A stretch of DNA of 63,122 nt, the filler included, from Kipferlia bialata (taxonomy: Eukaryota), in assembly GCA_003568945.1 (NCBI GenBank). It is 5 parts of 5 records of this genome, joined end to end, with 100 filler letters (N's around TTAATTAATTAA, not from the genome) between each part and the next. Parts side by side here need not be neighbours in the genome. Positions count along the whole stretch, not along the records: positions 1 to 16,184 come from BDIP01000628.1; 4 more parts are not named here. One strand, 5' to 3'. The notes beneath the pieces are model-generated. The model had not been told where the DNA came from. It saw only the letters and a program-made list of their open reading frames with translations, and ran no database searches. Shown one piece after another: positions 1 through 43,554 of the stretch (position 1 is its first letter; every line of letters starts with the position of its first letter). The position numbers were made by a program, and so were the translations under genes.

Positions 1-44
<44 letters not shown>

Positions 45-63
45 AGAGAGAGAGACAGAGAGT

Positions 64-578
64 ACCTGCCAGTGTGTATGGGTCACTGTTGGGGAACATG
101 AGCTTGGACAGAGTCTGGGCATGGGCGACACCAAACCTACAGAATAAGGGTGTAGGGGGAGAGAGAGAGAGAGAGAGAGAACGTCAGTGACCCTAGAGGA
201 CTCGAACGATTGATAAATAACACGATGTGAAACGGTTAAGACGCCTAGGACTAAAGGTTCACCCGCCGCATCAACACTCCCTCTGCAACATATACGTATC
301 TGCAGAAGGAAAGCGATCTATATTCATTGATAACCTAAATCGCACAATATAGATATTCAAAGTCTGAATATCAATACCTGTACAGGGCCTTGCTCCCCTC
401 GCTAAAGAACACGTCCAATAGCCTGAGGGATACGTCCTTAGGCAGGGCATAGAGGAAGAGGGTGTCGAAGAGGGCCTAGCAATGAGGGTGTAAAGGACGA
501 GAGAGAGAGAGAGAGAGAGAGAGAGGAAGAGGGTGTCGAAGAGGGCCTGACAGTTAGTATATAGTGAGAATAAGTAAT

Positions 579-615
<37 letters not shown>

Positions 616-2265
616 TGCTGAGGCAGGGCATAGAGGAAGAGGGTGTCAAAGAGGGCCTGGTAACTAGTATACAATTTGTATAAGCTATAAGGGTGTAGAG
701 AGAGAGAGAGACATCCAGAGGTAGGGTATAGAGGAATAGGGCACTATGCTAATAATACACAATGTATACATACACAGAAAACTATGAGTGTATAGTATAT
801 ACCTTGTAGCCGACAGAGATTGGGAAGCTCCTCTCGTGGAATGCCTCGACCACATCTGGCACATGCCGCCTCATCAGGTCAACAAAGGTCAAGGAGAAGA
901 GCATGGAGTCCTCCACGGTCAAGGGGAGGTAGTAGCTGGCACCGCTCTGATATGTGAGTGTATGAAGGCAAATTGGGGTATCACTACAAATATAGAGTAC
1001 AGGAGAAGACATATAGTGTATATATCTACATATACATACCTGTCTAATCATGGCCACTATGGTGGCATGTACGTGGCATGGCTCCATGTAGGACAGAAGC
1101 ACAGTGATCAGGGGGAGGATGGCGGGGCAGTACCTGAGGTAAGTATGCATATATAGGCAGAGAGAGAGAGAGAGAGCGAGAGAGAGAGGCAGAAGCACAG
1201 TGATGAGGGGGAGGATGGCAGGGCAGCATCTAGTGTGAGAATGTGTATTAAAGTAGGCAGAGAGAGAGAGAGAGAGAGAGAGAGTACAGTGATCAGAGGT
1301 AGGATGACAGGGCAGAATCTAATATGTGAGAGTATTCAAATTCAGAGAAAGACATGCCTCTGTCAGTCAAGTGTAAATATCCAAAAAAACACCATAAAGT
1401 ACACATACAGACACAGATACAGATATATATGAATATAGATTATATAACCAACCTCAGCTGTGGACACACACTGGCCACACATAGGGAAATGAGGTCCCTT
1501 ATGTGAGAAAAAGGGGGAGGAGAGAGAGAGACATATCAGATTTGAAAGATAGACAGGACATGATATTGACTTCCAAATTGAGCCAGATTGATATCCAAAG
1601 ACAGTGGGACTTTTGAGAGAGAGTATAAATGACGCCTCTGTATACCTGGTCTTCATGTACGGTGTGCTGAGTGTGAACACACAGTATACTCATATACACT
1701 AAATGCAAAATATATACAATACACAATTGTACATGGATACCTAGTCTTCATGTATGGAGTGCTGAGTGTGAACACAGAGTATGGCACATTGCCAAAGGTG
1801 GGACTCAACTGATATCAGACACATACACACTGAGAGAGAGAGAGAGAGCGGGGGAGAGAGAGAGAGAGAGAGTATGGCACATTGCCAAAGGTGGGACTCA
1901 ACTGGGGTCAGAGAGAGAGATAAGTAGAACATACATATTGATATATATAGAGAGAGAGAGAGATAGAGAGAGAGTGAACACAGAGTATGGCACATTGCCA
2001 AAGGGAGGACTCAGCTAGCATTAGAGAGAGAGAGAGAAAAAAAAAAAGAGAGAGTATAGCACACTGTCAAAAGTATACCGTCTGGGTATGTAACAGACAC
2101 CAATATATATACCCATACATATATAGTGGGACGTGAATACCTATACACATATATATATATACATACCTCTGGTGGTATGCCGTCTGGGTATGTGGCAGAC
2201 ACCTTCTCAGCTATGGTATCATAGAGCAGAGGCTCCTTGGCGAAGAGGTCAGCACCGCCAGATAC
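64..2265 (-). CDS. TBC-domain Rab-GAP-like protein, TBC1D24/Skywalker-like (multi-exon, both ends incomplete)
   Basis: Manual GT-AG splicing gives VSGGADLFAKEPLLYDTIAEKVSATYPDGIPPE / LSPTFGNVPYSVFTLSTPYMKT / RDLISLCVASVCPQL / RYCPAILPLITVLLSYMEPCHVHATIVAMIRQ / SGASYYLPLTVEDSMLFSLTFVDLMRRHVPDVVEAFHERSFPISVGYK / ALFDTLFLYALPKDVSLRLLDVFFSEGSKALY / RFGVAHAQTLSK. The YCPxxxxxxxLL and RxxDVFFxEGxKxLYR motifs are typical of TBC1D24-type TBC domains. Confidence 0.78.
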
Positions 2266-2396
2266 CTAGCTTTAGAGAGAGATGGGGGGTTGCAGCTTGG
2301 AGCTTGGGGAGAGAGAGAGTATGGCACATAGCCAAAGGTGGGACTGAGCAAGAGACAGAGAGAGCAAAGGGGGGGGGGGGGGGGGGGGGGGGGAAA

Positions 2397-2440
<44 letters not shown>

Positions 2441-2871
2441 GATACATATATACATAGCGACACTGACATACCCAGTGACTGCACTAGCCTTCCCAGCACC
2501 CTTGGTAGTCACACCCACACTGGGTATGAGCAGGGACATATGAACTACTCAAGGACAAGGAGAGAGAGAGAGAGATGGAGAGAAGAATGAGACAGGGGAG
2601 TTATGTATGTACACAATGTCACTAACACACCTAGGTGCAGCACCCTTCTTGCCAGCACCACTGGGAGCTCTATCCTTCCTAGGGATTAGTAGGAACACAA
2701 GATATACAAGGACAAAGAGAGATAGACCTATTATCCACCAGATATATCCATACATCGTCAAGAAAAGAGTAACATACACTCACATTCTTTCACAGCCACC
2801 CACAGTATCGAACTCGCTGTGCAGAGACAGCAATGGGGCGACAATGAATAAGAAGTAGTAGCAGGTCGCGA

Positions 2872-3177
2872 TTCAAAGAGGTAGTCTTTTTGCCCACACA
2901 TGAAAAGGGTCCACAAAGCGATGAAATTATTCTGCAGATGTTGCTCTCTCAACGAACATGAATCGACACCGTCACACAGGATACAGCGTCACTGTTCACA
3001 TACACTTAATTTTCATCATTAGTAGGACATACAACCACACCATACCAATCCTTTAAAATCTATTGTAACGAACTACACAGTAAGTAGTACGACAGTGACA
3101 CACATAAACAACAATATCATCCAACCCTCGCATCGTTTTCATATCAGAATACTGGCAATGATGATGCGGATCTCAAC
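2872..3177 (+). repeat. Direct repeat copy 1 (about 310 bp), diverged duplicate of 3707-4027
   Basis: Colinear with copy 2 from ttcaaagag..gtagtctttttgccca to gatgcggatctcaac, with scattered substitutions and small indels. Confidence 0.92.
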
Positions 3178-3558
3178 ATGGAGGGAACATACAACACTGA
3201 CTACATATACTATATATATTAACTACCAGTCTGGGTGGTATATCTCCACTGCATTGTTTACAATGTCCAGTGTCTCTCTCAACCGTGACCGCTCCTCTGA
3301 GGAGTCTGTTTCCTCTACGAAGCTGCAGATGCCTGCCTCACATAGAGGGTGAAGGGGTTCACGTAAGCGTCTCCTGGCACGACGCTCAGCATGACGCTCG
3401 GCACGGGTCATCTGGACACCACCTGACCTCACATATACGTGGGTCAGTCCTTCATCATTGTCACTAGTATGAGGACGTAAAGTAATGAATTGATATATGT
3501 AAATTAGTGTACCTGATGGACAATAGGACCCCGCAGGGGTCCTCGAGTGAATGTTCCT
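3139..3558 (-). CDS. Hypothetical multi-exon gene fragment between the two repeat copies (5' end unresolved)
   Basis: Spliced frame EHSLEDPCGVLLSI / SDNDEGLTHVYVRSGGVQMTRAERHAERRARRRLREPLHPLCEAGICSFVEETDSSEERSRLRETLDIVNNAVEIYHPD / CVVCSLHVEIRIIIASILI* with GT-AG junctions. No family recognised. Confidence 0.4.
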
Positions 3559-3706
3559 CTGTATCATTGGTTGTCATGTAATAGTATGAATGTAAAGGGG
3601 GCTATAAAGGTTACATACCATGGGTACATATATATATGATGTGAATCTGGTACAAAGGTATGATGATGTTGTCAGTTACACCAAGAATGTATCAGTATCT
3701 ATCAAA

Positions 3707-4027
3707 TTCAAAGAGTCAGTAAAGAGTAGTCTTTTTGCCCACCCATGAAAGGGGTCCATAAAGTGATGAAATTATTTTGCAGACGTTGCTATCTCAGCGA
3801 ACACGACTCGACACCATCCCACAGGATACAGATGCAGCGTTACTGTTCACAGATACTATATTTCATCATTAGCAGGACATACAACCACACCATACCATTC
3901 CTTTAAAGTCTATTGTAACGAACTACACAGTAAGTAGTACGACCGTGACACACATAAACAACACTATCATCCAACACTCGCATCGTTTTCATATCAGAAT
4001 ACTGGCAATGCTGATGCGGATCTCAAC
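3707..4027 (+). repeat. Direct repeat copy 2; candidate Helitron left-terminal sequence overlapping the 3' end of the RPA70-like gene
   Basis: Near-identical to 2872-3177 and immediately follows the candidate TC terminus at 3698. Confidence 0.9.
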
Positions 4028-4859
4028 CTTTGCACTGCGCCTCCCCTGAACAAGCATGGGGTTAGAGGATATATAATACAAACACAGGGAACACAACGAA
4101 TAGGTTTCATATTAACCATATATATATATGTATACATAGATAGATACACGTATACATATACATACTACCTACACAACCCAATGAAGCGGTACCACCTCCC
4201 ATCCTTACCACCAAGGTAAGCGGCCCGCTGTGTGTCGTCATAGGCAGACAACACACTGGCAGATAGTCCTATTGGTCATTCAGAGATCAGACACCTTACA
4301 GTATACTACGATACCCTGACAGATACACCTTTTCTGACATCATTACCTACTACAAGACTGGCGGCCGCATCCTCCAATACGACACCGAGTGGGCCACCCT
4401 CCCGTGAGTGACAATCCAGGCTCATCTTGTATCTTATGTGAGCATCCATATATGTCAAAAGTATTAGAACAATTACAACATAACACACCGTAACACATTG
4501 ACATATAAACACATATTACCTGGTTGCAACACGGGTGCCATGCTCACACCTCTCATAGTATGGAACCCCACCACTGGCAACCTCTCCGTTGCATTGGGTA
4601 CAAAGCCGACAGAACAATTTTACCCTAAAATTAATTTTAAGTGATATATTAATATGAGGTATATACAAGACATATAGCCACATATTTATACCTATCAGAG
4701 GGGATGGTTGGTACCCTGGCCACAAAACAGAGAGGTATCCCCCCCGATTTAGGAACAGTGGCGACAGTGAACCCAAGAAGATCCTCTAGTGTACTCTCAC
4801 CAGGTCCAAATGGATACTCGGCACGAGCACGCTCTAAATATTGGGAGTCACATATCATC

Positions 4860-4892
<33 letters not shown>

Positions 4893-6851
4893 TTATCAGC
4901 AATATGAATATAAGTCCAGATATATCGACAGTGCCCACACATTCACACTCACCTAGTGCAAGCAGGACACCCAGTCTGATAACACCACCTCTGTCCCCGT
5001 TGTCGTACCACTCACAGAGCCAATCGCTCCGAGTCCTTGTCTCTAGTTTCTGCTCATCTGTAAATGAGCGACTATACATACTATATACACTAAAGATATA
5101 CAGGTACATACTAGAGTCATAGTGAAAGAACCTGACAGAAGGGCATCATCATCACTGATCACAACAGTGTCATTGTCGATCAGTAAGGACCTCCCACTGG
5201 CACCAATCACGTTTACGTTGTGAAGACACACAGGAGACCCAACCTATAGATTAGATACACAATATCATTTCCCAGCACAGTACAAACAGACACACATACA
5301 TACCACTAGATGAGATATGGCGGCGTTGCTCCCAAGGGGCTCGTGAACCAGAACCGACACATCTCCATCGGCTAAAGTCAGTCATACTACAAGCAATCGT
5401 TGTACGTCTACATACACAAACAACGACACAGTATATATATATGTACAGATGTATAATTATACAATATATCGGACTCATATCATATATTAGAGCATATATA
5501 ATACACTGACCTATGACATGCACATATGACCCGTCATACGTGCCAGACGCCCCATGAGTGTTCCCACCAGCGACAATGACTATAATTAGTACGGGATCAC
5601 AGGCAACAATAGTATTAATTTCAACGAATAGCCAGACAACAGTTCCTACACTTACCTACTCCATGGACATCTACCAGGGACCTCTCAGCCACACCAAGGA
5701 GTCCGCGGAAACTGAGTCAGTGTATGTAAGCAGTATTACAAAAATACAAACAACATTACGTAAAGGAGGGTAGCGGCAGTATTACCAATACAATCCAACA
5801 GTGGTTGCACATATACACAGACAGAGACATATAATACCTGGTTACATCGAGCTTCAGAGACGCATCCACCTCGGGCAACTTGTCATGTGCACGAACCATC
5901 TTGGTGCCTCCATCCATCTCCAACTCTAGAGACCCACCTGATATAAAATGACTTAGAGCGGATAATCGTAAAAACCCACATACCAGTGTTGTTGAACAGT
6001 CTTCTGGTCCCATTGACATGTCTGACCCTACATCCAGTCACATAGACAGCACGACCCGGGACCAGGAGACTACCAAATGACTCAAGGAAGTCATTGTAGG
6101 CAATACACTTGGAAATCAAATAAATCAGGTAGAAGAAAGAGAAAGATAGAAATAGAGAGAGAAGAGAGGGAAAGGGGGGAGGGGGGGGGGGGGATATTAC
6201 TAACACTGATACTGAGCCCACACGGACACACCTTGATGTACTCGTTGTGACTGTCCATGGCAACGAAGTTGCACAACCTCCCCCCTGTATCCAATCTACG
6301 GGGGGGGTAGACTACGACCAGCTGAAGTTATATTTGTATGTCAATAGTACACCCGACCAACTCATACATACACATATAGTAACAACAAGTATACCTTCAG
6401 AAGTAATGTGTACTTGGTTCCTACAGCACCAATGTGGAGAGAGTGCAGGGGTCTAATGGCAGCGGGGAAAGTGACAGGCACAACATCAGGCTCTAGAGAC
6501 ACAGCCACCTGGTGATGAATGCAAAGAATAATCATCGCATGACACACATTTGTCAGGTTATACATATGATCGAGTGTACGAAAATTTGCTACTACCCACC
6601 ATACAATACGACTGTGAGAGAGAACCACCAGCAGTCGACCCTTGTGAAAGAAGCGGCTCCACGTGATCCTCGGCGGATGGATCATCAGGAACGCCCTCTG
6701 TGTCTGGAGTAGTCACAGGAGCGTCGATATCTTCACCACAACCCGACTTCTCGGTAACGGGATCGGCAACCCCATCAGCTTGGGACAGGACTTCATGTGA
6801 TTCACCTCCACTATCACTACTCTCGGAGAAGATGTCTTCGAAGGTTCCCAT
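3989..6851 (-). CDS. RPA70/RPA1-like ssDNA-binding protein (three OB folds plus Zn ribbon), about 15 exons, Helitron-associated
   Basis: Exons: 6851-6600, 6508-6395, 6321-6232, 6107-5984, 5937-5838, 5711-5656, 5579-5511, 5371-5304, 5243-5132, 5057-4953, 4833-4692, 4624-4520, 4432-4347, 4268-~4169, 4045-~3989. All junctions are GT-AG and in phase except the last, which is ambiguous. DBD-A-like: IRPLHSL..KYTLLLKLVVVYPPRRLDTGGRLCNFVAMDSHNEYIKCIAYNDFLESFGSLLVPGRAVYVTGCRV..LELEMDGGTKM. DBD-B-like: SLVDVHGVV..VCLHNVNVIGASGRSLLIDNDTVVISD..WLCEWYDNG. DBD-C-like: CTQCNGEV..RCEH..RYKMSLDC..VLEDAAASLVVG. Confidence 0.8.
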
Positions 6852-7331
6852 GCCACAAACAACTACGTTGCAGTGGTAGAAACAGGGATTGCTTCAATGA
6901 TAACATTAGGGGTCACAAAAATTTTTTCATTAGTATAACGATATCTATAAGAATTCATATATCCTTTCCAGGTCTGAGTTCACACCGTGACAGTAGAACC
7001 GGATCAGAAGACATCCCAGAGAGATAGAGACAGAGAAAGAAAGAGAGAGAGAGAGGGAGAGAGAGAGAGAGAGAGAGAAAGAGAGGAGGAGAGAGAGAGA
7101 GAGAGAGAGATTGCCGTCTAGAGAGAAGAGAGGGAAGAACGTAGGCACTCGCAGCGAGTCTATCAGAGGTAACAATGTCATACCTATACATACAATGTCG
7201 TATGCACTAGACGACAGTTTATCAACTGGGACGAGAAGGAAGACATCTTATTCACGAAACAGATTATTACAGAATAGTATACAATTCACTTCACTTATGT
7301 ACTTTCAGGTATCCATCTAATCACAGTTTCC

Positions 7332-10300
7332 ATGTCTCTGTACCAGTTTAGCGTGTACATGCTTGGTACAGAGTTCCCCAAGAGTCGCTTCCGCAGACGA
7401 ATGAGGCGAGGTTACCAACAAGCTTGGGCAAAGCTACACAAGAAGGACCTGTTGTATTTCCACTCAATCTGGGACATATGGCCAGAGAGCACTAACACGA
7501 GTACTCATCCCGATAGTCACATTGGTTCTGAGACAGTCACAGACAGAGTAGGGCCAGGATGTGAATTCAATGAGAGAGGTGTTGACCAATCCCACACTCC
7601 CAGTATGTCATATCAAGAAGGGGATACTAGTACCAACCAGACGACAGAGGATGACCATGCTCAGTCAGAGAGAATTGATGACATTGTCAGGGTAATGTGT
7701 ACACCTACAACTCAGGACAGCACAGAGACACACGATGAGTCAACAATGAAGTCGTACTTATCATGGATACAGACCAAGTACAACCTCCCAGCATTCCCAC
7801 TGGAGAGCGACGTATATATCCAACGGGCACGTGGTCTCCATGCTGATGTATCATCGGCCCATAAGAGATTCATAGAAGACACTGAGATGTGGCAGAAGGC
7901 TGTACAGACAGAGATGGAACAGTCGGAACAGGATACTGCTGATATGAAACGTCATATGCGTGGCGGGAGTGACCGAAGGAGACGCAATGTGCCCAGAAAT
8001 ACTCAGAGGAGGAGACCAAGTCTGAGACGTCTGGCCATGCAGCTGATCAGAAACGCACCTGATCACATCCCCCATCGTCATTCTGAAATGTGGCAAGACA
8101 CTATCCGCAAGATACTGCAGAGTAACCACTTCCTCGACGCAGTGGACATGGAATATGCGCTTAACGTTTACAAGGCTGCATTCAATATTCCAGATCTACA
8201 GCTACCCAGTGACATTGAGAATAGGGGTCTTATTGGATACGGCCCATTCCAAGTGGAACCGGGACTACCACAGATAGTGTTTTATCCTGGCGGCACAAGC
8301 GTAGATGCCATCGGACATTATGTAGTGTTTCAAATGATAGAGAGACTCGGCACACGGAGGGTCATTGTATGGGACTCTCTCAGGGGAACATCATCCAGAC
8401 ACCAGGTGCACACAGCAATGCTGCAGATTTACAACGAGATCCTGGATTACGATGTCATCGTGTATCAAGAACAACCAGACGGAGTGATGTGTGGTTGTTT
8501 TGCACTTGCATGTCTAGTCACACTGATCCGTGGTCAGGTGCCCGGTAGACCCAGTTTCGACCCAGAACAGATGAGAATACACATCGCCAGGTTTATCGCA
8601 GGAGACATTGATCCCAGTGACACTCCTTTCCCGACGCTCCAGATGTCACCTGTACATGCTACAATGATATCAGATATCAGACAGAGCGATGTCAGTGATA
8701 TGTCTCTCCCAGTCCCACTCAATGCACCCCTCTCTTCCACCAGTCCCAATATCACACATAATGAGGACATGGTCTGCCAAATCCCCCAGGAGGTGACAAA
8801 CCCACCCACAAGAGAACGAGAGAGACCAGAGTTATCAGGGACATGGCATTCTTACGACACCCCCATGACGTCTCGTCCGGAGACCATTGATATCACATGT
8901 ACTAATGAATGTCAGGAGGACCCACACACAATCGACATCACACATGACATGGAAGTCATTGAATCAGAGACAACTGATATCCCCGACCCCATCTCACCGA
9001 CACTCACCACCTCTCCACCACAGTCACCTGTGTATGATACATGTGTGTCACCAACCACAACGACTGCGAATAGTCACTCTAAGGTACAGCAATAGACCAG
9101 AGTCAAACCGATGAAATATTTTGCAGCGTTAAAAATATTTCATCGGTTTTATATATTTATAGGTGTCAAGTCCAACCTCATTCAAGAAACACAAGACACA
9201 CAACGTGGACCGCATGTACCAAGAGGCTCTTAGAGACAGGTATTGCGAGCAGGAGTGTAGTGTGTCAGGTGACTCAGAGAGTGAAGAGCAATCAGAGGTG
9301 GAGGACATTGAGGAAGACCCGGACGATGAAACAGTCATCGCAATGTCAGATGTAAACCTATATCGTCAACTGGACCAAGATAACGATTTGTTTCGTACAC
9401 TGGAACAGGACCCAGAGATTGACGATAATGGTGTACCAAGATACAACCCCCTGCCTACCCCGGAGTCGGATAGCGAGAGTGACCCCTCACACAGCACCAC
9501 CCCGAGCGCTGAGAGTTCCGACGATGAACAGACTGCAGACATTAGGCTCCCCTTCTATGAGGTGCCCAGACCAATTACCGGTCGTGACGTACCACTTCCC
9601 CGTAATATCGACGATGACACCATAGGCGTCAGAGTCCAGTCTGAGTACATGGTAGATAGACTTGTTGGCTTTCACAGAGACAGAGAAGATGGAGAGGAAC
9701 TATATGTCCCATATGCCACAGATGACTTCAAGAGGGACATAGAGCTCTATAGAGGTATAGGACTGACCGCAAGTACATTCATTCTGTCTAGACCACGACC
9801 GGAAAGACAGCGGCCACGGCGACGTGGGACACTTAGAACACGTGACACAAATGTTAACGACGACGAGATGGTACCATTATTCCCCCGACACAGTGCAGGC
9901 CACTGCCACTTCAGATGTTTCTTCTGTAGATGCTACATATTCAAGTCTGAGGCTGGATTACTCACTGAGAGAGATAAGAAGACTTTCGTAGAAGTCAGAG
10001 CAGCACAATATGGGACAGACAAGAGAGTCATTTACGGTAAAATATGTTGTAACAAGGGCTGGGTTAAAGTCCCCATACACAACATAACGGGCCTCACACT
10101 AGAGAGACGTAATGCTCTTTACAATATCCCTGGGGCAATGCAGAAGTTACGCATGCTTAACTCCATGGTTGCCTTCACCAGCATATACAGTGAGAACAGA
10201 CTACGGGTCGCAGGACAGGGTATCCCTATACTACAGCGGAATGGTACTCTTAGACACAGACTAGCAGTTGGCCTGGCAAACGCCCCGGACGGATACATTA

Positions 10301-13300
10301 AGCACGTTCATCGTCTCAAGCTCACCAGAGGCAAGAGAGAGGAGCAAATTGAGACTGACCACGACGCAGACGCAGTCGCCCAGCGTATGATGAGGGTGAT
10401 TGAGAATATGTTAGAGACAAATGATCTTGTTACCAGCTACCAGAGGTGTCGTAGCATTATGATGACTAAAGGCTCAGAGGCAGAGGTCACCATGATCCTT
10501 CCAGCATCCAGAAGGGAGAGACGTATAGCAGCATCTCATATACCAGAAGAGTACGCGGATCGCATGAGAGACACACTCACACAAGAGTTGACCCCGTTTC
10601 TCGTTGTGGAGAACTCATATCTTAGTGAACAAGACAAACACGACATTATGTTTGTCCCTCACGACGAGAAGGACCTCCATACTGTCCATGAGGCAAACGA
10701 GTTCTATGAACAACTGCGATACCCTCTTCTGTTCTGCCAGGGAATGCCCGGGTATTACAAGGGTATGGTACATGAGAGACTACTGAAGAGACCGAGGAAA
10801 CCAGAGAAGAAGACTGAAGAAGAGGCCATCCCTCACGTATCATACTGGGAGGGTCCACCTGATCCAGAGACACTGCCACCTGATGCACATGTACTCAACA
10901 GAGATATTATCTTACCACCCGAAGTAGTGCCACTGCCGGAGGAGGTGCCACCACAACCAGACCAAGCACTTCCTGATCATGCTGCTGAAGATGTCATCGT
11001 AAACATGGATGATCATGAGAACTGGATCAACATCCCCGTCCCGGAGACACCATCAGCACGTGAAGAGCCCAAGAAGAAGAAGGAGAAGAAGGCACCTCCG
11101 AAGATACACACAGAGACAGTTGTGATCAATATGGGAGATTATCACAGGTATATTCTTCAAGAGCGTGACGATACCAGCCGCCTACTGTCATCGGGCCCAC
11201 TGTCGCAAGAGTTCCTGATCGGATGCCAATCTAGGAAGGAGACTGTCAACCTGAACTACCTCAGGACAATCCAGGACACACTCCTATACGGCACATTTGA
11301 TATATTCAGTGATGCAGTCGCCAATAATGAAGAGGACTCTGTTGGCATGCCCCTGACAAAGACAGTGTTACCATCGTCATATAACCTTGGACCCAGGCAC
11401 CTCAAGGTATCAGTGCAACGACATCAGTAAGCCCATGTATAGGTCTAATACATACAAAGTCGATATTTAAAGACTCAGTTCAATGACATTAATCTCAGTT
11501 TCAAACGATGTTCTAACAAAACCGATGAAAATATTTTACAAAAACAAGGAAAACATTTTGTCAAAACCGATGAAATTTTTTTACATCATCAATGACTGTT
11601 TAATTTCATTCTTTATTTACGTCCTTTCTTGACACCAGATGCTCGAACTGAACTGCAAACGACTGATTGATGAGTTCAACTTGCCGACACTGTTCCTGAC
11701 AATGACACTTGACCCAGATAACCCCGACCTGATGAGGGCGGCTGAGAAGTTTCACAACTCTGATCACAAGGAGCGAGACGACCTTGCAGCCAGAGTTTTC
11801 AACGATCAAGTGAAGCGTCTGGATCACCTGATAAACAATGTCGAGATATTTGGCAAGACACTGGCATTCACATACCGCGTGGAGTTCCAAGAGAGAAACC
11901 TACCACACATTCACGCACTTATATGGTTAGAGATTCCGATTATCACACCAGACCAAGTTGATGAGGTAATCAAGGCAGAACTACCAGACCCGATCGATGA
12001 CCCATTACTCTTCGAACTTGTACGTACACATATGATGCACGGAAGCTCCAGGAGGGGATGTACACAGTACAAGTGTGGGAGAGATGCAGCAGAGCTTCAT
12101 GGGAGGGACCCACACGACTACTTCCGCAGACATGGGAAGTGCACAGCAGGATATCCGAAGGATCATGCAGTTACAACTGTCAAGAACGACAGGACTGGTT
12201 ATACATATAGACGTCGTATCACTGGTCCTGGGGGCAGACGAGACAACAGCAGAGTCATCCCATACAGTCCGGCACTACTAGCTATATTCCAGTGCCCACT
12301 CAATGTAGAGATATGCACTGCCATCAACGTGTCTCACTACCTCCACAAGGATCAGAACTCTACGCAGGGATACATTTTCAAGCAACCTCCTATCAACAGG
12401 ACGGTCAGAGTCAACCAGAGTGACGAGATCACTTCATTCGACGTAAATCGTGTTCTCGGACCAGTAGAGGCAGCGTGGCAGATATATGGATTCCCGATGG
12501 GAAAGATGACCCCATCGGTCGACCCTCTTCCTATACACCCAGATGGACAACAGGGCATGATTGTGAGACTCAACGAGGCTCCAACCGAACACCAGAAGAA
12601 GATGCTGAGGAGGGAGATTGAGAGGGGTGCCAAGAAGACCAAGGTCAAGGGGTACATGGAACTCATGACTAAGGAGAGGACCCTACGCAGACATCTCAAG
12701 GCTCTAGTAATGGCGGACACTACTGACATAGAACGCAGATGTGACCTCAAGTATCAGGATGTACCAGCAGAATATGCCTGGAAGCAGGATTCTAAGGTAT
12801 ACATTCGTCGGTCACACAACCTCATCAGATCCACACTCGGCAGAGTACACATGACTGTTCCTCGACAGGGTGAGAGACATTACATGAATCTGATTGCACA
12901 GCACAGAGGGGGTATCCATTCATACGAGGAGTGGAGAACAGTGAAGGGTACAATGTATGATACATATCAAGAGGCTGCGTCGGCACACAAGCTACTGGAC
13001 GACGAGAAGTGGCGTCGGACACTCACACAGGCGTGTGCAGCAGCGCCGACCGGTCACACGAGTGTACTAATCGACCTCCTCGCCTACATTGTCACTAGAC
13101 AGAGTGTATGCACACCAGGTCATCTCATCGACAGTGTTGACCTAAACACCGAGACCACAGACGACAGCGTTTGGCAACTACTACAGAGCAATCACACCAG
13201 GGCACTGGCTGAAGTACTTCCACTATATGGTGATGAACTCAAGCTCCTGGTCCTATTGGATCTAAGACACAAACTGGAATGTACTGGAGAGTGGTCCAAG

Positions 13301-15274
13301 AACAGGAGAAAGGCAATGGCACTGGACACGTTCATGTTATCGAACATTGTCAATGACATCCCGGCAGACTTTGACGACATTGCGTACAGAGAGTTCCTTG
13401 AGAGGTCACTGGAACGCGTGAGAGAGGAGAACAGAGTTAAGTATCACTCTAGTGTCATTCAGACACAGGCAGTAGAGAGGGAACTGGATTATAATGTCAA
13501 CGAGGAGGAACGATCACTTCACGAGATGCAACCGACACTATCAGGTGGTGAGAACGGGCAAATGGCGGCGTACACTACCATCACCAATGCCCTAGAGTCA
13601 CGTCTCGAGGAACTGCGTATTGAGAGGGAAGAGAAGGCAGAAGCCGAGCGTAGACAGAAGGACAATATCCTCGAGCCCCCAGCAACTCCCACACCTCGGT
13701 CCAAGGACAAGAAGGAGACAGTCATCAACCGATACATGTACTTTGTGGATGGACCAGGGGGCAGTGGCAAGACATATTTACTCAAGACACTGATACACTA
13801 CATCAGGTCTCAGGGTGATATTGTCTTAGTGAGTGCCCCAGCAGGTATTGCAGCGTCACTCCTACCAGGGGGTCTCACCAACCATGCCATGTACAAGATC
13901 CCTATACGTGAGTTTGACTATGACAACTCAGACATTAACATGTTCCGCAACGAGGCCACGGCCACTCTCCTCAAGGACCCCAGGGTCCGTCTACTCATAC
14001 TGGATGAGGCGGCCAACATCCACAGCACAGATCTTGAGGCCATCAATGTTGCTATGCAGAGGGCAAGGGGCAACAAGATGCCATTCGGTGGTGTTGTGGT
14101 AGTGTTCTCGGGAGACTTCAGACAGATTCTCCCAGTGGTCAAGACACGTGACAAGGCAACTGCACTTAGTGCATGTGTGTTCAATTTGAAATGGTGGGAA
14201 CCACAGGTAAAACCATTATCACTGCTGGGGAACATGAGAGTGAGAGGTGTGCAGAACGCAGAGTTCATCGACTGGACACTCAAGGTTGGATCCAATGAGC
14301 ATACCGACAGTGACGGAAAGGTATATATACCAGAGTACCTCCGCTTCGTCCCAAAGAGGAAAGAGATTAAGCAGCGGACTCAAGTGAAGCCCAGGTGGTA
14401 TAAGCGCTCAATTGGTAATCTAAAGGTGTCTGGATCGTCCAATACTCGTTCAAAGGCAGAGAAACTAGGAGAGGACGAGATACTGGACCAGGTGATAGCA
14501 CATGTATTCCCACACGTTACAGACAACACAGTATCCCGAGATCCAGACAGCGGCATCGACTCTGCTATTCTTACTGTGCATAATCCAGATGTGGACAGAA
14601 TCAACAACAGAATCGTGAGTGGTATGTCTCACAGACACACACGTTGTTATCTGTCTACCAACAGCTTCATAGGACCGAAGGCTCTATACCACGACAAGAG
14701 TCCCACTGATCTGAACAAGGTGGCACAGAGCGGACTACAACCACACTTGATCAGAGTGGCAGTGGGTGTTCCAATCATGCTCCTGACCAACATGGATGTC
14801 GGCAGCGGACACTGCAACGGGACCAGATATATCGTAGAACAACTACTCGACGACGTGATAATGGCCAGGACCATTACGGGACCCAGCAAGGGCAAACTAT
14901 TCTTTATCCCGAGGTATATATCAATGTTCAGTATAGTTAATAATGGTGTATAGACACAATACTAATACAGGATCACAGTCACCAGGTTCTACGATGGGAT
15001 CGGGTTCAACAGGACACAGTTCCCCATCAGAGTTGCATATGCAATGACTATCAACAAGGCGCAGGGTCAGTCAATCGACAGAGTGTGTCTATTCTTCAAC
15101 AAGGCTCCATTTAGCCACGGCCAGACATTCACAGCCATATCCAGGGTGAGGGACCCCAAGAACTTATCCATATATCTACCAGGGCGAGAGACATCTGTCC
15201 CGAATATCGTGTACGACAGGGCATTGAAACAGATCCCCTTCGGCAGCAGCAGGGAAGTCGAGATTGAGTTCTGA
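7332..15274 (+). CDS. Helitron RepHel polyprotein: Ulp1/C48-like cysteine protease, Cys-rich N-terminal region, HUH Rep, Pif1-family SF1B helicase (4 exons, about 2,520 aa)
   Basis: Exons 7332-9083, 9163-11406, 11639-14913 and 14971-15274 join in frame through GT-AG introns. Protease: GHYVVF..VWDSL..QPDGVMCG. Helitron N-region: CFFCRC..CCNKG, LNSMVAFTS, YEQLRYPLLF. Rep: PTLFLTMT, VEFQERNLPHIHALIW, YLHK..YIFK. Helicase: GPGGSGKT, LILDEA, FGGVVVVFSGDFRQILPV, NGTR, QFPIRVAYAMTINKAQGQS, FSHGQTFTAISRV. An additional upstream exon is possible (acceptor tttcag at 7303-7308). Confidence 0.93.
9105..9149. repeat. Perfect 18-bp inverted repeat (9-nt loop) inside RepHel intron 1
   Basis: aaaccgatgaaatatttt (9105-9122) pairs with aaaatatttcatcggttt (9132-9149). 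Confidence 0.95.
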
Positions 15275-15382
15275 TGCAAGTTGTCATGGTAGTGGATACA
15301 ACATGTAATATTATGTACTAATAGAGAGACAAAAACAAAGGGAAGAGGTTTTTATGGAAAGATAGTAGACAAGATAGAAATA

Positions 15383-15438
15383 TTCATCAGTTCATGTAAA
15401 ATAATTTCATCAGTTCATGTAAAATAATTTCATCAGTT
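15383..15438. repeat. 23-bp tandem repeat (about 2.4 copies) downstream of RepHel, carrying the element motif in reverse orientation
   Basis: Unit ttcatcagttcatgtaaaataat at 15383 and 15406, with a partial copy at 15429. Confidence 0.9.
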
Positions 15439-16184
15439 TGGGTAATAGAAGAAACAAAAACAAGACCTAGACCCCCAAGTAAAGAAGGCTAGTAAAATTA
15501 AAGGGTTCAAGAGTTCAACAACTATAATTATAATTATAGCCGAAACAACGTATAGCGCAAGAATACCACTATATACAAGTTATACAACAACACTGGGAGT
15601 ATTTTATACAGGAGTATAAAAAAAAGTTATCGGCTCATTTTCGAGATCCTGCGAATTAGTGGATATAGGCAAAAACAAAGTATTGGAATAAGACATCTAA
15701 CGCGGTATTTCAACCTAAAACAGGGCGCTGATTCCATTTTCGATATTCATTTTCAAATCGAGTAAGAACTGACAGAGTTACATTTTTGACCCCAGAACCA
15801 GCCTCAGTGTATATACTGTTCAGCACCAGTGCACCCCAAACAACCTTTCGCGACCAAAACTTTTTGCAGCCAGAGTATGTTTCTAGTGCCTACAGCACAG
15901 TTTTCAGTGGTTATAGTGACAGCCAACACACAGGACGCACAGTGTTAGGGGTGGAAGTGACCAACTTTGGGGTCTATAATATATGTCACTACGCGATGAA
16001 ATCAAAAATCTCAACTCTATTTTGTAGAGCTACCTCAACTGTGTATATATGTTCAAAATCAGTATCATCGGCCCCAATGTTAACTAGTGTTACTGGGATA
16101 GATACTGATACTGATACTGATACTGATACTGGGGTACATGGGTGATGAGTTGACTACCCTAATTAGGGCATCCATTTAGTATTA

Positions 16185-16316: not shown

Positions 16317-19300
16317 CTGCTCCTGCCTGTCGAGTATGACGTGAGGTATATATTTCTATGGTGACATAATTAGTATGACCCGAGGTATATATCTGATATG
16401 ACATCAGAGTGACATATTGGTTTGGTGTGACTTTTGTGTGTATCAGGTCTGATATGTCAGGACTGCCTACCCTGGGTATGCTGACTATGTATTGTTCTAC
16501 CTGTATTGTGTATATATATATTTGTATATATACATCTCACCTACTAGAACTGCCTACCCTGGCTGTGCCGACTATGTGCTGGACCAGGGGTCATGCGGGT
16601 CCTGCTGGGCCTTTGCCACAGGTACACTATAGAGAGACTATGTACTATTAAGGCACTATTCTATAGATAGGTACAGCCACAGAGGGACTGTGGTACTATT
16701 AGCACACTATGCGGTGTGTACTGCCTCTCACTCCAGCCGAGTCTCTCTCTGATCGTTACTGTGTCATGACTGGAGACAACACGGTGCTCAGCCCCCAGGT
16801 CAGTGGCTGCTCTCTCTCTGTATGTCTCTCTTTCTGATAGTGGGAGCTTGTGAACTGCGACCGACAGATACTCCCGTTCTATACTATTTTCTGACTCTCT
16901 CTCTGTATACATACGTATCTTACCCCAGGAGCTTGTTGACTGCGACAGACTGATGCTGCCCGGTGGCTGCAGTGGGGGTGAGTCATCTCTCTCGCTCTCT
17001 CTCTGCATATGTATATTCAGTATATATACTTACATATAGGTGAGCCCTACCTGGCCAATGACTCCTTACATAAACTCTCTCCCTGCATGTGTATTCATCA
17101 TATATTTACTCATATATATATGTACTTACGTATAGATGAGCCCTACCTGGCCAATGACTCCTTTCATAACTCGCTCTCTCTATATATATATAAATATAAT
17201 TCCCTGTATACTTTAACATATAGATAGATATACACCTTATATATAGGTGAGCCCTACCTGGCTAATGACTACTTTCATAACTCGCTCTCTCTCTATATAT
17301 ATAAATATAATTCCCTGTATACTTTAACATATACATAGATATACACCTTATATACAGGTGAGCCCTACCTGGCCAATGACTCTTCACATTTCTCTCTCTC
17401 TCTCTGAATACATATATATGTATTCTTGTGTATATGCACTTATATGCAGGTGAGCCCTACCTGGCCAATGACTGGCTGGAGTGGAATGGACTGGTGCCCA
17501 ACGAGTGCTACCCATACGTGTCAGGTGTGTATGGATATGATTACTATTATCCGAATATATGAGTAGTATAATATACCTAATATCAATAGTGAGTTAGGCT
17601 CTCTCTCTTTCTTCCTCCCTCTCTCTCTCTCTCTCCCCCCCAGGCCACACCCACGAGAGGGGCACCTGCCACTCTGATGTGTGCACAGACGGGTCGGAGC
17701 CCAGTCTCAAGGTATGTATATCATATTCGTATATGTCACTAATTTATATTGAAACAGCAGAAACTGGTCTTAATATATGTATAGATGTGTGCACGGGTGG
17801 GTCGGAGCCTGGTCTCAAGGCATATACCTACATATGTATATATACTAATATATACCCCCTGATACCAAGGTCTCACCTCAGGTCTATATATCTATGAGTC
17901 AGCTGTTAGTGACTACATATACCTACCTCACCCCAGGTGTATGTCGAGGCTATGTCCGCTGAGTTCTATGTATGTATATTTGTACACACATATATATACA
18001 AGTACAATATATATATATATATATATACTTCTATACCTCACCCCAGGTGTATGTCGAGGCCATGTCCGCTGAGTTCTATGACAACCCCACCCAGATACAG
18101 AAGGCTATCATGGATAAGGTAATGGGTGTATATATAGAGAGAGTATATAGATATGTTAATGAATGATACAGAAGGCTATCATGGACAAGGTATGTGGTGT
18201 ATCTTGTAACTATGTAGACTGTATCAGTGGTGATCCTGATCTCCTGTCCCCCTCACCCCCAGGGCACTGTGGCTATATATATATGTGTGTGTATATATAT
18301 GTGTGTTTATGTATATATATATATGATGGCCCTCCTTTCTCCTGTCCCACCCCCAGGGCACTGTTGCCGGCACCATGATTGTGTACGAGGACTTCTACAA
18401 CTACAAGGTATGTATACCGTATACTATATATATACATTAGTATATATATATATATATAGGTGTATAATTCTATATTGGACGAGAGGACTTCTACAACTAC
18501 AAGGCACGCTGTATATCACTTACTCCGAAACTGTTGTCATAGTTTTATGTGATATTTGTGTAAGTATGTGTGACTTCTACAACTACAAGGTGGGCATTAT
18601 AGCACATACTTCTAATATGTATGTATGTATTCGTTGATAAATATGCTACTCAGTAGTACGAGGACCTCTACAACTACGTGGTACAAATAGCATGTAATAG
18701 TCGTCTATTGAGCCAACTACACACAATACATTTTGTATACAACTTTGGATGAAGATTTCTACATCTACAAGGTTGGTAAAACACCACATAATATTGTATA
18801 TTACCACATTATTAAAACTATTTATACTTTGCTTCGATATGGACACCGTTACTCTCTATGTGTTATATGCTAAGTATATTATGAATATAGTGATAGTGGT
18901 GCATAGGCACTAACACCAGGGAGGCGTGTACGAGCATGCCTATGGCGCCATGGAGGGTGGCCACGCCATCGCTATCGTGGGGTGCGTGCATTGATACAAA
19001 TATATACATCTTCATATTCATAGTATGAATCATACTCTCTCGAATTCCAACCATCTCTCTTGTGTGTCTCTCACCCCCAGCTGGGGTGTTGACTCGGTGT
19101 CCAACCTGCCCTACTGGACCGTGGTACGTATGTGTCTATTTACATGTGTACATGTACACCACTTAGTAAGTAGTTATCCACCATTTTCATTTCCTATTAT
19201 AGAGTACATTTATAATTACCCCAGTGCAACTACTAGGACTGTGGTACGTATCCTATATATATATATATATTAATAATGACCCCAGCGCAACTCCTGGGGC

Positions 19301-19405
19301 TATGACTTTGGGGAGGACGGGTACTTCAGGATCCTCAGGGGCATGAACATGTGCGAGATTGAGCTGGGGGGGTCAGCCGCAACACCCTTCGTAGACACAG
19401 AGTGA
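16317..19405 (+). CDS. Cathepsin B-like papain-family (C1A) cysteine protease, multi-exon, 5' incomplete
   Basis: Spliced: [10 protein letters not shown] / [24 protein letters not shown] / [21 protein letters not shown] / ELVDCD..GGCSGG / [22 protein letters not shown] / .. / [17 protein letters not shown] / [21 protein letters not shown] / WGVD..YWTV / [31 protein letters not shown]. Catalytic Gln, Cys, His and Asn are all present. Confidence 0.93.
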
Positions 19406-19970
19406 ATATATTCATATAGTGAATATATGCATTGGATGAAGAGATATCGAGTATCCGTTGTTTTGACACAGAGTGGTCAGCCGCCACTCCCTATGTCGAC
19501 ACAGAGTGAATGGATGACTGTCTACTAGATAATATGTCCTATGATTGAGCCTTCCGATCCAACTGAAATGCTCTTTATGTAGTACAAGCGAACACGGCGG
19601 GAAACGACGCCACAGGAATATATTGATACCAAATTGTTGTCAGCGTCGTGTATCTGTGTCAGGGCACCCCCTGAGCAGAGGCGAACGGTGTCATCTGTGA
19701 TGAGTTAGTTTGCAGCGTCACGCCACAGGCATACTTGGCTGAAGTCCCCCCTCTTCTCACTTCATTTCAAGTGACAAGCCCTAACTTCCAAGGAGCAACC
19801 AAAGGGTTGAGGCTCAACCGTTGCGGCCGACAAATTGTTGGGGTATGACCATAATCTTCTTGAAGGTGACAAACCCCTATTCAAACACGACGAGTGCCAA
19901 ATTGGCACTGCCAATCTATCCAGTGAATGATCAAATCCTAATGAATGACACACCCAATCGTCTTTTTAAC

Positions 19971-39657: not shown

Positions 39658-42600
39658 TTATCCCCCACTCTGTGCCTTTGACCTCTGCTGCAGTTCCCTC
39701 ATCACTGCGTCACGATGTTCCTCTGAGGGGAAGCAGAGCAGATAGCGCTTCTCCCTCTCCCCCTTCATGTAGTCGAACCTCAGTCCATGCCGTGTCCCCC
39801 CTGCCTTGATGACGCTGACACTCTCACAAGCACGGAAGGTGAGGCCCTCCAGCCTGACTGTGCCTGCTGGGGTGGCATCGGGGTCAGACACCTTGGCCTC
39901 CGTCTCATACCACCACAGACGGTCAGGCCCAATCACATAGTGCCGGGTCTGGAGTCGCTTGAAGAGGCCCTTGCCGCCTAGTTTCTGGGCCACAAAGACA
40001 TGGTGCTCTCTCTCACCAGGCTCTTCGCCACTATGGCACTCCTGGTTGAGGGTGTCATCTTCTTCCAGAGTCTCTCCCTCTCTAGGCTCTAGCAGATATG
40101 TGCAGTCGCCCTCTATGCAGTGCACAATGGCCTTTAGCAGCTGGTCCCTCACGCTGGTGTTCTCGAAGCACAGGTAGTAGCGGACAGGGTTCACCTCTCT
40201 GCTGCAGTCGAATCCCATGCCTATGGACGTGCCCCCCAGCGCCACCGCCTCTGGGTTGTGACACACCCTGGGGCACCCTATCTCAGACAGGGCGGCACTG
40301 CCTAGAGGGGCCTCTCCTGCTGTGTAGGCTGCAAGGGATGCGTACCAGCTGAGACCAGAGGGTGTGAGTACAAACAACCGCTGTTGTAGCCGTCTGAATG
40401 GGGCCACCCCTCCCAGCTTGTGGGCTACTGTCACATATCTGTAGGCACTGCCCTCCGAGGTATCATTTTCTACATCTCTCTCCTCTTCTACAATCTGAGT
40501 GGGTGTAAGAGTGGAAAGGGTCGTGGCAGAGGAGGTGAGAGGTGAGAGGCCGGAGATCAGATAGCCAGATTCTTCGGCCCCACTCTCTTCCGTCTGGCTC
40601 TCCGGTTGGGTATCGATATAGGCACTCCCAGTGTATGAGGCACCATCGTCACACATCTGGAGCACGTACTCGTCTGCAGCCTGCTTGATACCTAGTAGTC
40701 CTGCATTGGCTATCCCGCCCTCCCTTGTCCGGTACACATAGAGGTCAGGTTCCACCAGATACGCCCCGCAGACTGCGTTGATGGCGTCTGCCAGGGAGTT
40801 GTTGTAGAGGGACAGCCGTGCCTCCCACGTGGTCAGGGCCTCTACCCTTCGGAGTGCACCGAGCAGAGGCAGGAACAGAGAGGGGTAGGGGCCTATGCGA
40901 AGGTCACAGACAGCTCTGAGGAGAGAGATAGGGACAAAGGGAACCCCGTCACTGTGACCGATTCGGGGCACCATCACGTACCGGTCCTCCCTGTATACCT
41001 TCCATGACTTCCACTCACCCTTGGAGGGGGGCAGGACGTCATTGACCTCATCCAGACATGCCTGCAGCACTATCCTGCCTAGCATGTCCTCTAGGGGTGC
41101 ATCAGGGTCAGACTTACCCGCCTTCAGTGTGTTGAAGACATGTGTATATGCCATGTGGAAGGGTATGCACATGAGCAGCGTCTCTAGGAGAGAGGCCCCC
41201 CCAGACACGAGGAGTGACATGTCGGTATTGTATACACGAGTGTAGCGGTAGAGGATTCTGCGCCACGTCTCTCTCTCTCCCATAGCACTGTCACAATCCT
41301 CACCTGTGTCGCTGTCTGTGTGGTGTGAGGTGACCAGAAGTACCTGTGGGTGGGGGTCCTCGTATGCAGGGTCAGTCAACGTCACAGGAGGCACTGCGTC
41401 GATACCACCCCTCTCCCCATCTCCTCCCAGGATGTCTGCACATATGACTACCAGGCCCTCTGTATAGGATGTAGTCAGCTGTCTCAAGGCACTCCTGGCC
41501 TCTCTCTCCCCCACAAGGCCACTATCTGAGCCCCCACTCATAAGGGTGTAGAGAGACTGGTGCCCCCCCTTGTACACCTCTGTGTCGAAGCAATCTGCCT
41601 CCTGACCGAGCCTTGCCAGTGCCGCAGTGAGTGACACATAGGCAGAGCGTGTCATGAGTGGACCCGCCACAATGAGGCAGGGGTGGTGTGGCTCGTACAA
41701 GGGGGCAACTGTCACCTGGGACGTGTATACCTGTATCAGTCTGTCCCTGTAGTAGAGCCTGGCCTGGATGGGGACCAGGGTGTATGGCTGGATGGACCCA
41801 CCCACAGTGAGGGAGAGAGGGGTAAGGGAGAGGGTGGTCCCAGGGGCTGTGTCTGGTATGGGTATGCGGTACCCATGGGATATGCACAAGGGAGAGTCAG
41901 CACAGGTGTCTGAGGCCTCAGTGCCTACACTACTCTCAGGGTCTGTCCCACTATCACCAGTTCCAAAGTCACTAGTCTGGGCATCCTCGCCTGGCTGAGA
42001 CCCCACACTCTCGTATCCGTGGCACCCCTCTGTGAGGTGCACCCCTGCTGGCACTGCAATGTCCATGTACAGACCCTCAGAGGCTACCAGGGTCTCATGT
42101 GACACGTTATGTACCTTCACTGTCACGTCGAATGGTGTATCTGTCCCAACCTTGACTGCAGTGTGTGTTAGGGATACCATCTGAATGGGCCACTGGGTGG
42201 GAAGGGTCCACTCCAGCTCGGACTCCCACTGCTCTCTGCCCAACACCTCCACCGCACCCCTCAGTGTGTATCCCTGGATATATGTCGTGTCGGTTGTGTC
42301 ATGGGTGCACTGCATGGTGGGCAGGTCAGACTGGTAGGCAGGGAGAGAGAGATGCGGCAGAAGAGAGGGGATCAGGGCGGCAGCGATGGAGAAGGAGTAT
42401 GTTGGCGTGTCTGTGTCCTTCCCACCGTCCTCATTCGCCTCAGTGTCAGGGACAGTATCGCCTGAGCCCTTGCATAGAACAGTGGTGTCCCCAGCTGCGA
42501 GACTGTCCAAGGGGTACCTGTGCTCCTCTACCGATTCCTTCTCCTCCCCCTGTTGTCCCACACCACTATCTCTCTCTCTCTCTAGAGACAACACCACCTC

Positions 42601-43554
42601 TGTGTTCTTAAGTGGTGTAGGGAGCCCCCCCACATTATGGACAGACACCCCCCTGACCGTGACCTCAGACCCTGGCTCCACCAGGCCATGCCCCACCCTG
42701 TCCCCCAGTGACACCCCAGTCAGCACAGGCAGGTAGGGCAGGGGGGCTGTCTCAGCCACTGTCCCTGAGGAGTCTGTGAGTTGGTAGGTCACAGACCCCG
42801 CACCCCCATCCCTCCCGTCCCCACCTGACACCCCATCGACCCCTGCCTTGCCAGGTTCCCCACTCCTACCGGGGACTCCGTGTGTCCCACGCACCCCATC
42901 CACCCCTGGGTAGGAGACGTCCCCAATCTGGTAGCCGTAGGCCACCCCAGGGGCACCCCCCTCGCCACCCCTCCCACCACACCCTCCCAGGCCCCCTCTG
43001 CCACCTGCTGCTGCATGGCCTCCAAGGCCTGCCTTGCCCCCTGGGGTCACCATCCCTATCAGTCTCTACCAGATGCATGGGTATGGGTGTGGATAGGTAT
43101 GTACCTGGGACAGACACTCCGATGAGACCCAGTAGGTCAGAGTCCGCAGGACAGACACTCACAACCACAGCACCCCCGTCTCCGCCGTCCTGGCCATTGC
43201 CTGTCGGTTGGACGGTAGGAGAGGCAGAATACATGCTGGGCTCAATACGTGTCATTGGTTCATGTTTGCATATGAGATATGTCTTCGTTTAATGGAACGT
43301 ACCTGCGTTTCCCGGGTCCCCTCCATCCCCTCCGTCGGTTCCATCAGTCCCGTTGCCACCAGGGGCTAGGGTGGTGAGGGCGTGGTAGGGAGTGATGGGG
43401 TATAATTACGTGGCGAAGAAGTATTGCTGTGGGGCGAGTCCAGAGAGTTAAGTGTTGTTTGCTCTGATGTGTGGTTGTACCTCCATGCCCCCCCATTCTG
43501 TCCCCTGCCAGCCCAGGGGTACCTGCCATCCCATCCACACCTGGACTGGGTGAG

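Follow-up and report, generated by a model that had tools for sequence, protein, structure and literature searches.

What is known of how Helitrons move comes almost entirely from Helraiser, a reconstructed element from bats whose two tyrosines stand four residues apart; according to PMC4778049, both are required for transposition. In the parts searched of the HELIANO report (PMC11417382), RPA and Peptidase_C48 belong to a set of 20 captured domains, with RPA located downstream in HLE1 but upstream in HLE2, and only four domains are named as lying within the RepHel frame, C48 not being one of them. Helentrons are described as carrying RPA and an OTU protease, and Helitron-related genes, reported as intronless and unexpressed, are mentioned for the fornicate Carpediemonas in PMC8516963. 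Here we describe a RepHel gene and its neighbors in Kipferlia bialata, an intron-rich metamonad absent from the searched parts of the HELIANO text and supplement, to which Helitron sampling is thereby extended. The window is a stretch of 63,122 nucleotides from assembly GCA_003568945.1; its positions 1-16184 form one contig (BDIP01000628.1), an N-linker follows, and the DNA past 16284 is unrelated to the element. We consider it probable, though well short of secure, that the locus holds a single-copy, open-framed RepHel of a Kipferlia lineage on the Helitron1 side, with a likely Ulp1-type protease fusion and a likely element-borne RPA70-like gene, which would move by peel-and-paste if competent.

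The RepHel gene and its motifs are as follows.

7332..15274, plus strand: RepHel gene, four exons (7332-9083, 9163-11406, 11639-14913 and 14971-15274), 2,524 amino acids
8316..8492, plus strand: putative Ulp1/C48 (CE-clan) active site with H329, D348, Q381 and C387, the family label coming from Atlas features only
9925..10050, plus strand: zinc-finger-like CxxC...CC motif ahead of Rep, as in Helitron1 RepHels
11873..11914, plus strand: Rep motif 2, YRVEFQERNLPHIH, with HUH intact, an L of Helitron1 type and, before VE, an R of Helentron type
12338..12373, plus strand: split motif 3 with Y1566 and Y1577, 11 apart (9 in the paralog)
13751..15145, plus strand: Pif1 helicase with Walker A K2043, DEA and arginine finger R2482

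A sequence-only reading of this DNA had described an uninterrupted spliced RepHel, and this holds: the three introns are all GT-AG, and the frame contains no internal stop and one terminal stop. The public model GIQ82224.1 (g3322, named DNA helicase) is 100% identical to residues 910-2524, so introns 2 and 3 are the same in both. The RNA contigs aligned to the locus do not cover RepHel and have no bearing on its expression; intron 1 is a prediction. The ATG at 7332, a plausible predicted start, is separated by 480 nucleotides from the minus-strand ATG at 6851, as had also been claimed. Acceptor-like sites at 6961-6971 and 7300-7308, upstream of this ATG, suggest additional 5' exons.

A Pfam scan of the four RepHel open reading frames (ORFs) returned Helitron_like_N and PIF1, and the HUH Rep fused to a Pif1 helicase that marks the Helitron superfamily is thus present. 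Helraiser (PDB 7lcc) matches the protein with an E value of 1e-123. The same scan found no match to an apurinic/apyrimidinic (AP) endonuclease or DUF6570 in the four ORFs, and the protein terminates shortly past helicase motif VI. The earlier reading was right that the C-terminal AP endonuclease is missing; its absence is normal for Helitron1. The gene is unlike host genes in its intron density (0.4 per kb) and simple-repeat content (0.3%). None of 10 ORF variants was present in an exact look-up of the sequence collection, and no relatives with flanking DNA were found in 366 metagenome pattern matches or in viral contigs.

The Rep domain is 34-35% identical to Helitron1 and 20-22% to Helitron2-type Reps. 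In a tree of 44 random Helitron1-type and 16 motif-defined Helitron2-type sequences (273 columns, one gappy row dropped, no curated references), the Kipferlia pair, consisting of this protein and the paralog KIPB_000095, joins Helitron1 with a Shimodaira-Hasegawa-like approximate likelihood ratio (SH-aLRT) support of 89.5 and is sister to all 44 Helitron1-type sequences at 91.7. Under LG+C20 the Helitron1 grouping has a support of 87.7, whereas the sister-to-all-44 position drops to 43.6. The phylogeny places the pair on the Helitron1 side, on a long branch; a basal position is not robust and possibly reflects long-branch attraction. Elsewhere, a metagenomic RepHel (L001:2001-2033) has a GSPH motif yet a Helitron1-like GSPRW upstream, and branches between HLE1 and other HLE2-type sequences.

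Two Rep motifs set the pair apart. At motif 2, L or M is diagnostic of Helitrons and R of Helentrons (PMC4067079). Of 149 Helitron1-type sequences examined, 140 have the motif and 0 of these carry the R, compared to all 16 Helitron2-type sequences, which were retained from 119 loci. The S of GSPH, the Helentron/Helitron2 hallmark, is not present in the Kipferlia RepHel; as aligned, motif 2 combines Helitron1 and Helentron signatures. At motif 3, when 155 Rep regions are aligned (one of the 156 supplied was dropped), the tyrosine spacing is 4 in 149 of 153 other proteins, compared to 11 and 9 in the two Kipferlia proteins. Both YxxK units are present in RepHel, 11 apart. An AlphaFold model of Rep built from an 86-sequence alignment reached a predicted local distance difference test (pLDDT) score of 89 and matched only 7lcc at E<=0.001. 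In this model Y1566 is part of a helix, while Y1577 falls in a loop of pLDDT <50, which leaves a two-tyrosine site as a candidate; low confidence at Y1577 is expected because the relatives are without the insert. Since 5-7 additional residues separate the tyrosines in each of two independent copies, the pair offers a natural test of how rigid the Helraiser geometry is.

The N-terminal region is likely, by prediction, a Ulp1/C48-type protease. Its residues run His-Asp-Gln-Cys, in agreement with what we take to be the Ulp1 active-site consensus, and the region matches Atlas Peptidase_C48 clusters at 0.95, with 183 of 256 features in common and the label carried by 17-42% of members in the matching clusters. 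Weighing against this assignment, the protease had 0 Pfam and 0 PDB matches; NCBIfam and PHROGs scans of the protease and exons gave nothing useful, and the N-terminal 700 amino acids matched none of 165 other stored proteins. A single-sequence fold model had a pLDDT of 39, too low for a meaningful fold search. The protease claimed for the polyprotein therefore keeps its residue order and cluster match, but is blank in Pfam and PDB.

A second K. bialata RepHel, the partial KIPB_000095 on a 50,188-nt scaffold, shares 52% identity with ours across 1,351 aligned positions. Its model begins at the C-terminal half of the protease, which is 37% identical with Q and C conserved, continues into Rep and is open over 1,700 amino acids. 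This continuity supports the joining of exons 1 and 2 in our RepHel and, since KIPB_000095 also has a protease half, we conclude from the two sequences that the protease-RepHel fusion is a trait of the Kipferlia lineage. That this metamonad harbors a Helitron lineage of its own is supported by the long branch, by motif changes private to the pair and by a 52% paralog in which the fusion recurs; the suggestion that it is new is tempered by both cargo types being known already. RPA and C48 are each catalogued Helitron cargo; what is new is the protease fusion, an upstream, divergent RPA, split tyrosines and a motif array. We found no published description of the element in searches for Kipferlia, Fornicata, metamonad Helitrons or Ulp1-RepHel, with Repbase, Dfam and most subscription papers outside their scope.

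Set beside Helitron1/HLE1 (Helraiser 7lcc and plant Helitrons with RPA), the Kipferlia element has the same Zn-finger-Rep-Pif1 order, motif-2 L, lack of an AP endonuclease, tree position and RPA-like cargo. It differs in its in-frame N-terminal C48-like protease, in an RPA-like gene that is upstream and divergent, in tyrosines 9-11 apart, in a motif-2 G changed to N and preceded by R, and in an internal 18-bp motif with no 3' hairpin-CTRR found. Like Helentron/Helitron2 (HLE2), it carries a cysteine protease and has RPA upstream of RepHel, inverted repeats close to either side and, in motif 2, an R ahead of (V/I)E. Unlike these, its RepHel is without an endonuclease (EN), a DUF6570 match or GSPH, its protease is C48-like rather than OTU, its repeats are 18 bp or longer, also intronic and at distances from the ends that are not as described, and its Rep shows the low identity given above. 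The Phytophthora Proto-Helentron also has no EN, and its 5' TT fits a candidate Kipferlia left end at A/TT (here and below, the slash marks the element boundary); its RepHel groups with HLE2, whereas that of Kipferlia groups with HLE1. The Carpediemonas genes share a fornicate host and are set apart by their description in PMC8516963 as intronless and unexpressed.

Upstream of RepHel and divergent from it lies the second gene, with the following features.

3989..6851, minus strand: likely RPA70-like gene, 15 exons, 529 amino acids, with DNA-binding domains DBD-A, DBD-B and DBD-C, a zinc motif, and an acidic N-terminus replacing 70N
4056..4057, minus strand: acceptor of the last RPA-like intron, which reads AT and is thus non-canonical; splicing at the next AG shifts the frame of the tail

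Thirteen of its 14 introns are GT-AG, and the exon 1 donor was chosen among several possibilities. An apparent TGA in exon 8 disappeared when the downstream acceptor 5371 was used. By eye the model is collinear with the RPA70 chain across DBD-A, B and C. Exon 4 matches Atlas DUF223/OB (oligonucleotide-binding) clusters at 0.92, and a PDB search with it returned, at E<=10, yeast RFA1 alone (E 0.85). Several results weigh against an RPA identity. Four other exons had no RPA match in PDB, the whole model scored E 0.24 on a profile made from 20 RPA-like proteins of plant Helitrons, no better than shuffles, and only one of six global pairwise alignments reached Z 3.5. Additionally, the AT acceptor is needed for the conserved tail. 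When exon 4 was used to look for an annotated RPA-like model, 0 of 5 candidates scored. The gene claimed earlier as RPA70-like thus builds as 15 exons with one resembling RPA, but its profile tests are negative and its last acceptor is AT.

An RNA contig (X2 record 9), about 91% identical, splices at the same position as the AT acceptor, which indicates that a single splice lesion likely affects the last 21 residues of this RPA-like copy. The same low-depth contig connects 2472-2835, where the left host gene has its 5' exons, with an approximately 91% version of the last RPA-like exons (3971-4202). This exon order is impossible from the locus and possibly reflects Helitron capture elsewhere, or a misjoin.

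The supplement of PMC8516963 lists g14379 and g15163 as the RFA1 genes of K. bialata. Neither adjoins g3322, and the neighbor gene is therefore not the listed host RFA1, as judged by gene number rather than sequence; on this count, one objection foreseen by the sequence-only reading, a host RPA1, does not apply. From this listing and its divergence, it is likely an additional, fast-evolving RPA70-like copy. The species has three RFA2 entries, and host Pif1 and RFA1 are present separately. The RPA-like gene has a host-like intron density of 8.8 per kb, and simple repeats make up 2.5% of it, compared to 15.7% of the left host gene.

The remaining features of the element concern its repeats, its left side and a small third gene.

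2872..3177, no strand assigned: left module A, which duplicates module B at 90% identity and holds a motif copy at 2915; candidate left end A/TTC at 2872
3707..4027, no strand assigned: left module B, with the RPA-like tail, the 3' region and a motif copy at 3760
3212..3465, minus strand: exon of gene X, a small third gene under purifying selection relative to a 92% paralog elsewhere; its membership in the element is uncertain
9105..9149, no strand assigned: within intron 1, a perfect inverted repeat whose 18-bp arms enclose a 9-nt loop, comprising two motif copies (z -9.35)
11519..11581, plus strand: two direct 18-bp motif copies in intron 2
15399..15439, minus strand: two tandem 18-bp motif copies past the 3' end of RepHel, opposite in orientation to those on the left

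The 18-bp motif occurs eight times in the 63-kb window, every copy lying within 2915-15439 and in non-coding DNA (introns and flanks), and the copies bracket the RPA-like gene together with RepHel. It was absent from 100 shuffles, and in leave-one-out scoring the copies reach 15-33 bits, with any other site at 8 bits or fewer; tempering this, the pattern was built from these same sites. The motif probably serves as a binding site for an element protein, placed clear of coding sequence, and provides a concrete substrate for studying Helitron self-DNA recognition. A rival view makes it a 3'-end RNA signal, in keeping with flanking copies that are all downstream of stop codons and in the same sense. 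A genome-wide miniature inverted-repeat transposable element was ruled out, as depth is unchanged across introns 1 and 2.

The ends at 3698 and 15492 proposed by the sequence-only reading did not survive. They match A/TC and CTAG/T, but the CTAG at 15489-15492 has no preceding hairpin (z +1.2), and left-end homology breaks off at about 3707 and 2872. Because 2872-3177 and 3707-4027 are 90% alike and both start at A/TTC, the left end is more likely at 2872 or 3707, both candidates. Inverted 18-bp copies stand on both sides of the element without terminal hairpins, and a 40-nt scan of 15274-16184 found no 3' hairpin with a CTRR end. The contig offers only about 900 nt of right flank before it stops at 16184, and the true right end may lie beyond. 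The stretch 15500-16090 is AT-rich, repeat-free and non-coding and holds a degenerate motif core at 15995; it could be the right arm of the element running past the contig end. A 15-nt inverted match flanking the element (3689-3703 and 16097-16111) belongs to a common GATACT microsatellite and is probably due to chance (E 0.77).

Between gene X and its 92% paralog, 14 of 16 listed differences fall at third codon positions (p 1e-5; 3 further differences are unlisted), with 12 synonymous codon changes and 2 non-synonymous. The paralog sits near the end of an unbroken 9,826-nt contig, possibly another element, and the exon can continue in frame into the duplicated RPA-like tail.

Is the element still moving, as had been suggested? 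Assembled contigs of a DNA sequencing run (X1) cover 7119-15412 as one contig at depth 452, with unique neighbors at 388-463, and depth is flat at about 452 over 7488-15273 with no rows of other letters, indicating no near RepHel copies. No copy at 85% identity or more was found among the aligned contigs. Rare variants are lost in contigs and the window may itself derive from X1, whose depth is therefore not independent evidence. Since K. bialata is reported as likely diploid in PMC5874029, single-copy depth looks like one fixed locus. That the element is a currently active autonomous one we regard as very improbable. The open frame and the presence of every checked catalytic residue speak for activity; there are no near-identical copies, the joints listed, from contigs only, include no element-end junction, and the ends are no more than candidates. 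Past spread of the element is likely.

A fixed locus invites the reading that the Helitron was domesticated or immobilized, with RepHel, the RPA-like gene and gene X now host genes under selection and the ends decayed. The single full-depth locus without near copies, the 7.5-kb open frame, the lack of a recognizable 3' hairpin, the synonymous excess in gene X and a paralog that is old (52% identity) yet open over 1,700 amino acids would all fit. We nevertheless find this unlikely, because the intron and simple-repeat content of RepHel is unlike that of host genes, the RPA-like acceptor is degraded, the approximately 90% left-module duplicates resemble element derivatives, and separate host Pif1 and RFA1 genes exist. 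Less likely again is an ordinary, fast-evolving Helitron1 that lies by chance beside an unrelated, divergent host OB-fold paralog. Host-like intron density in the RPA-like gene, several RPA-subunit paralogs in K. bialata, the basal support of 43.6 under C20 and the usual downstream position of RPA in Helitron1 lend themselves to that view, but the element motif recurs on the far side of the RPA-like gene (3760 and 2915), and exon 4 resembles clusters of DUF223, the domain of plant Helitron RPA fusions. Four points argue for the RPA-like gene as cargo: the host RFA1 is listed elsewhere, the tail of the gene was duplicated together with the motif at 2872-3177, the RNA contig carries a third version of about 91% identity, and simple repeats are scarcer in the gene than in the left host gene.

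Our preferred reading remains an element-borne RPA70-like gene beside a Helitron1-side RepHel. A bolder version, which we put forward tentatively and think doubtful, is a deep third Helitron branch at the base of Helitron1 with a Helentron signature, a rebuilt two-tyrosine site, an iteron-like 18-bp array including an intronic hairpin in place of the 3' terminal hairpin, its own deSUMOylase and RPA70, and a third conserved gene.

If the preferred reading holds and the element is competent, then by analogy to Helraiser Rep would nick the left end and remain tyrosine-bound, Pif1 would unwind the strand in helicase-driven displacement, and a circle would form before reinsertion. The RPA-like protein might cover the displaced strand, and an element protein might bind the 18-bp motif. 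The protease could act through the SUMO pathway of covalent adducts, removing SUMO-like tags from the transposase-DNA adduct, or it could process the polyprotein. With protease and RepHel fused, the repeated capture of deconjugases by Helitrons becomes testable on one protein.

Further genes lie in the left flank and on the parts of the window that follow. At 1..2835 on the minus strand lies a host gene with many introns and microsatellites, spliced in RNA, which we take by eye to be TBC/Rab-GAP-like. A papain-family host gene, cathepsin B-like by eye, occupies 16540-19410 on the next contig; its introns contain repeated partial copies of adjacent exons, and the same pattern appears at 1764-2388. 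Finally, 39658-43065 (minus strand) is a 1,135-amino acid ORF without introns that encodes a PH domain and a collagen-like repeat, an unusual structure for this intron-rich genome.

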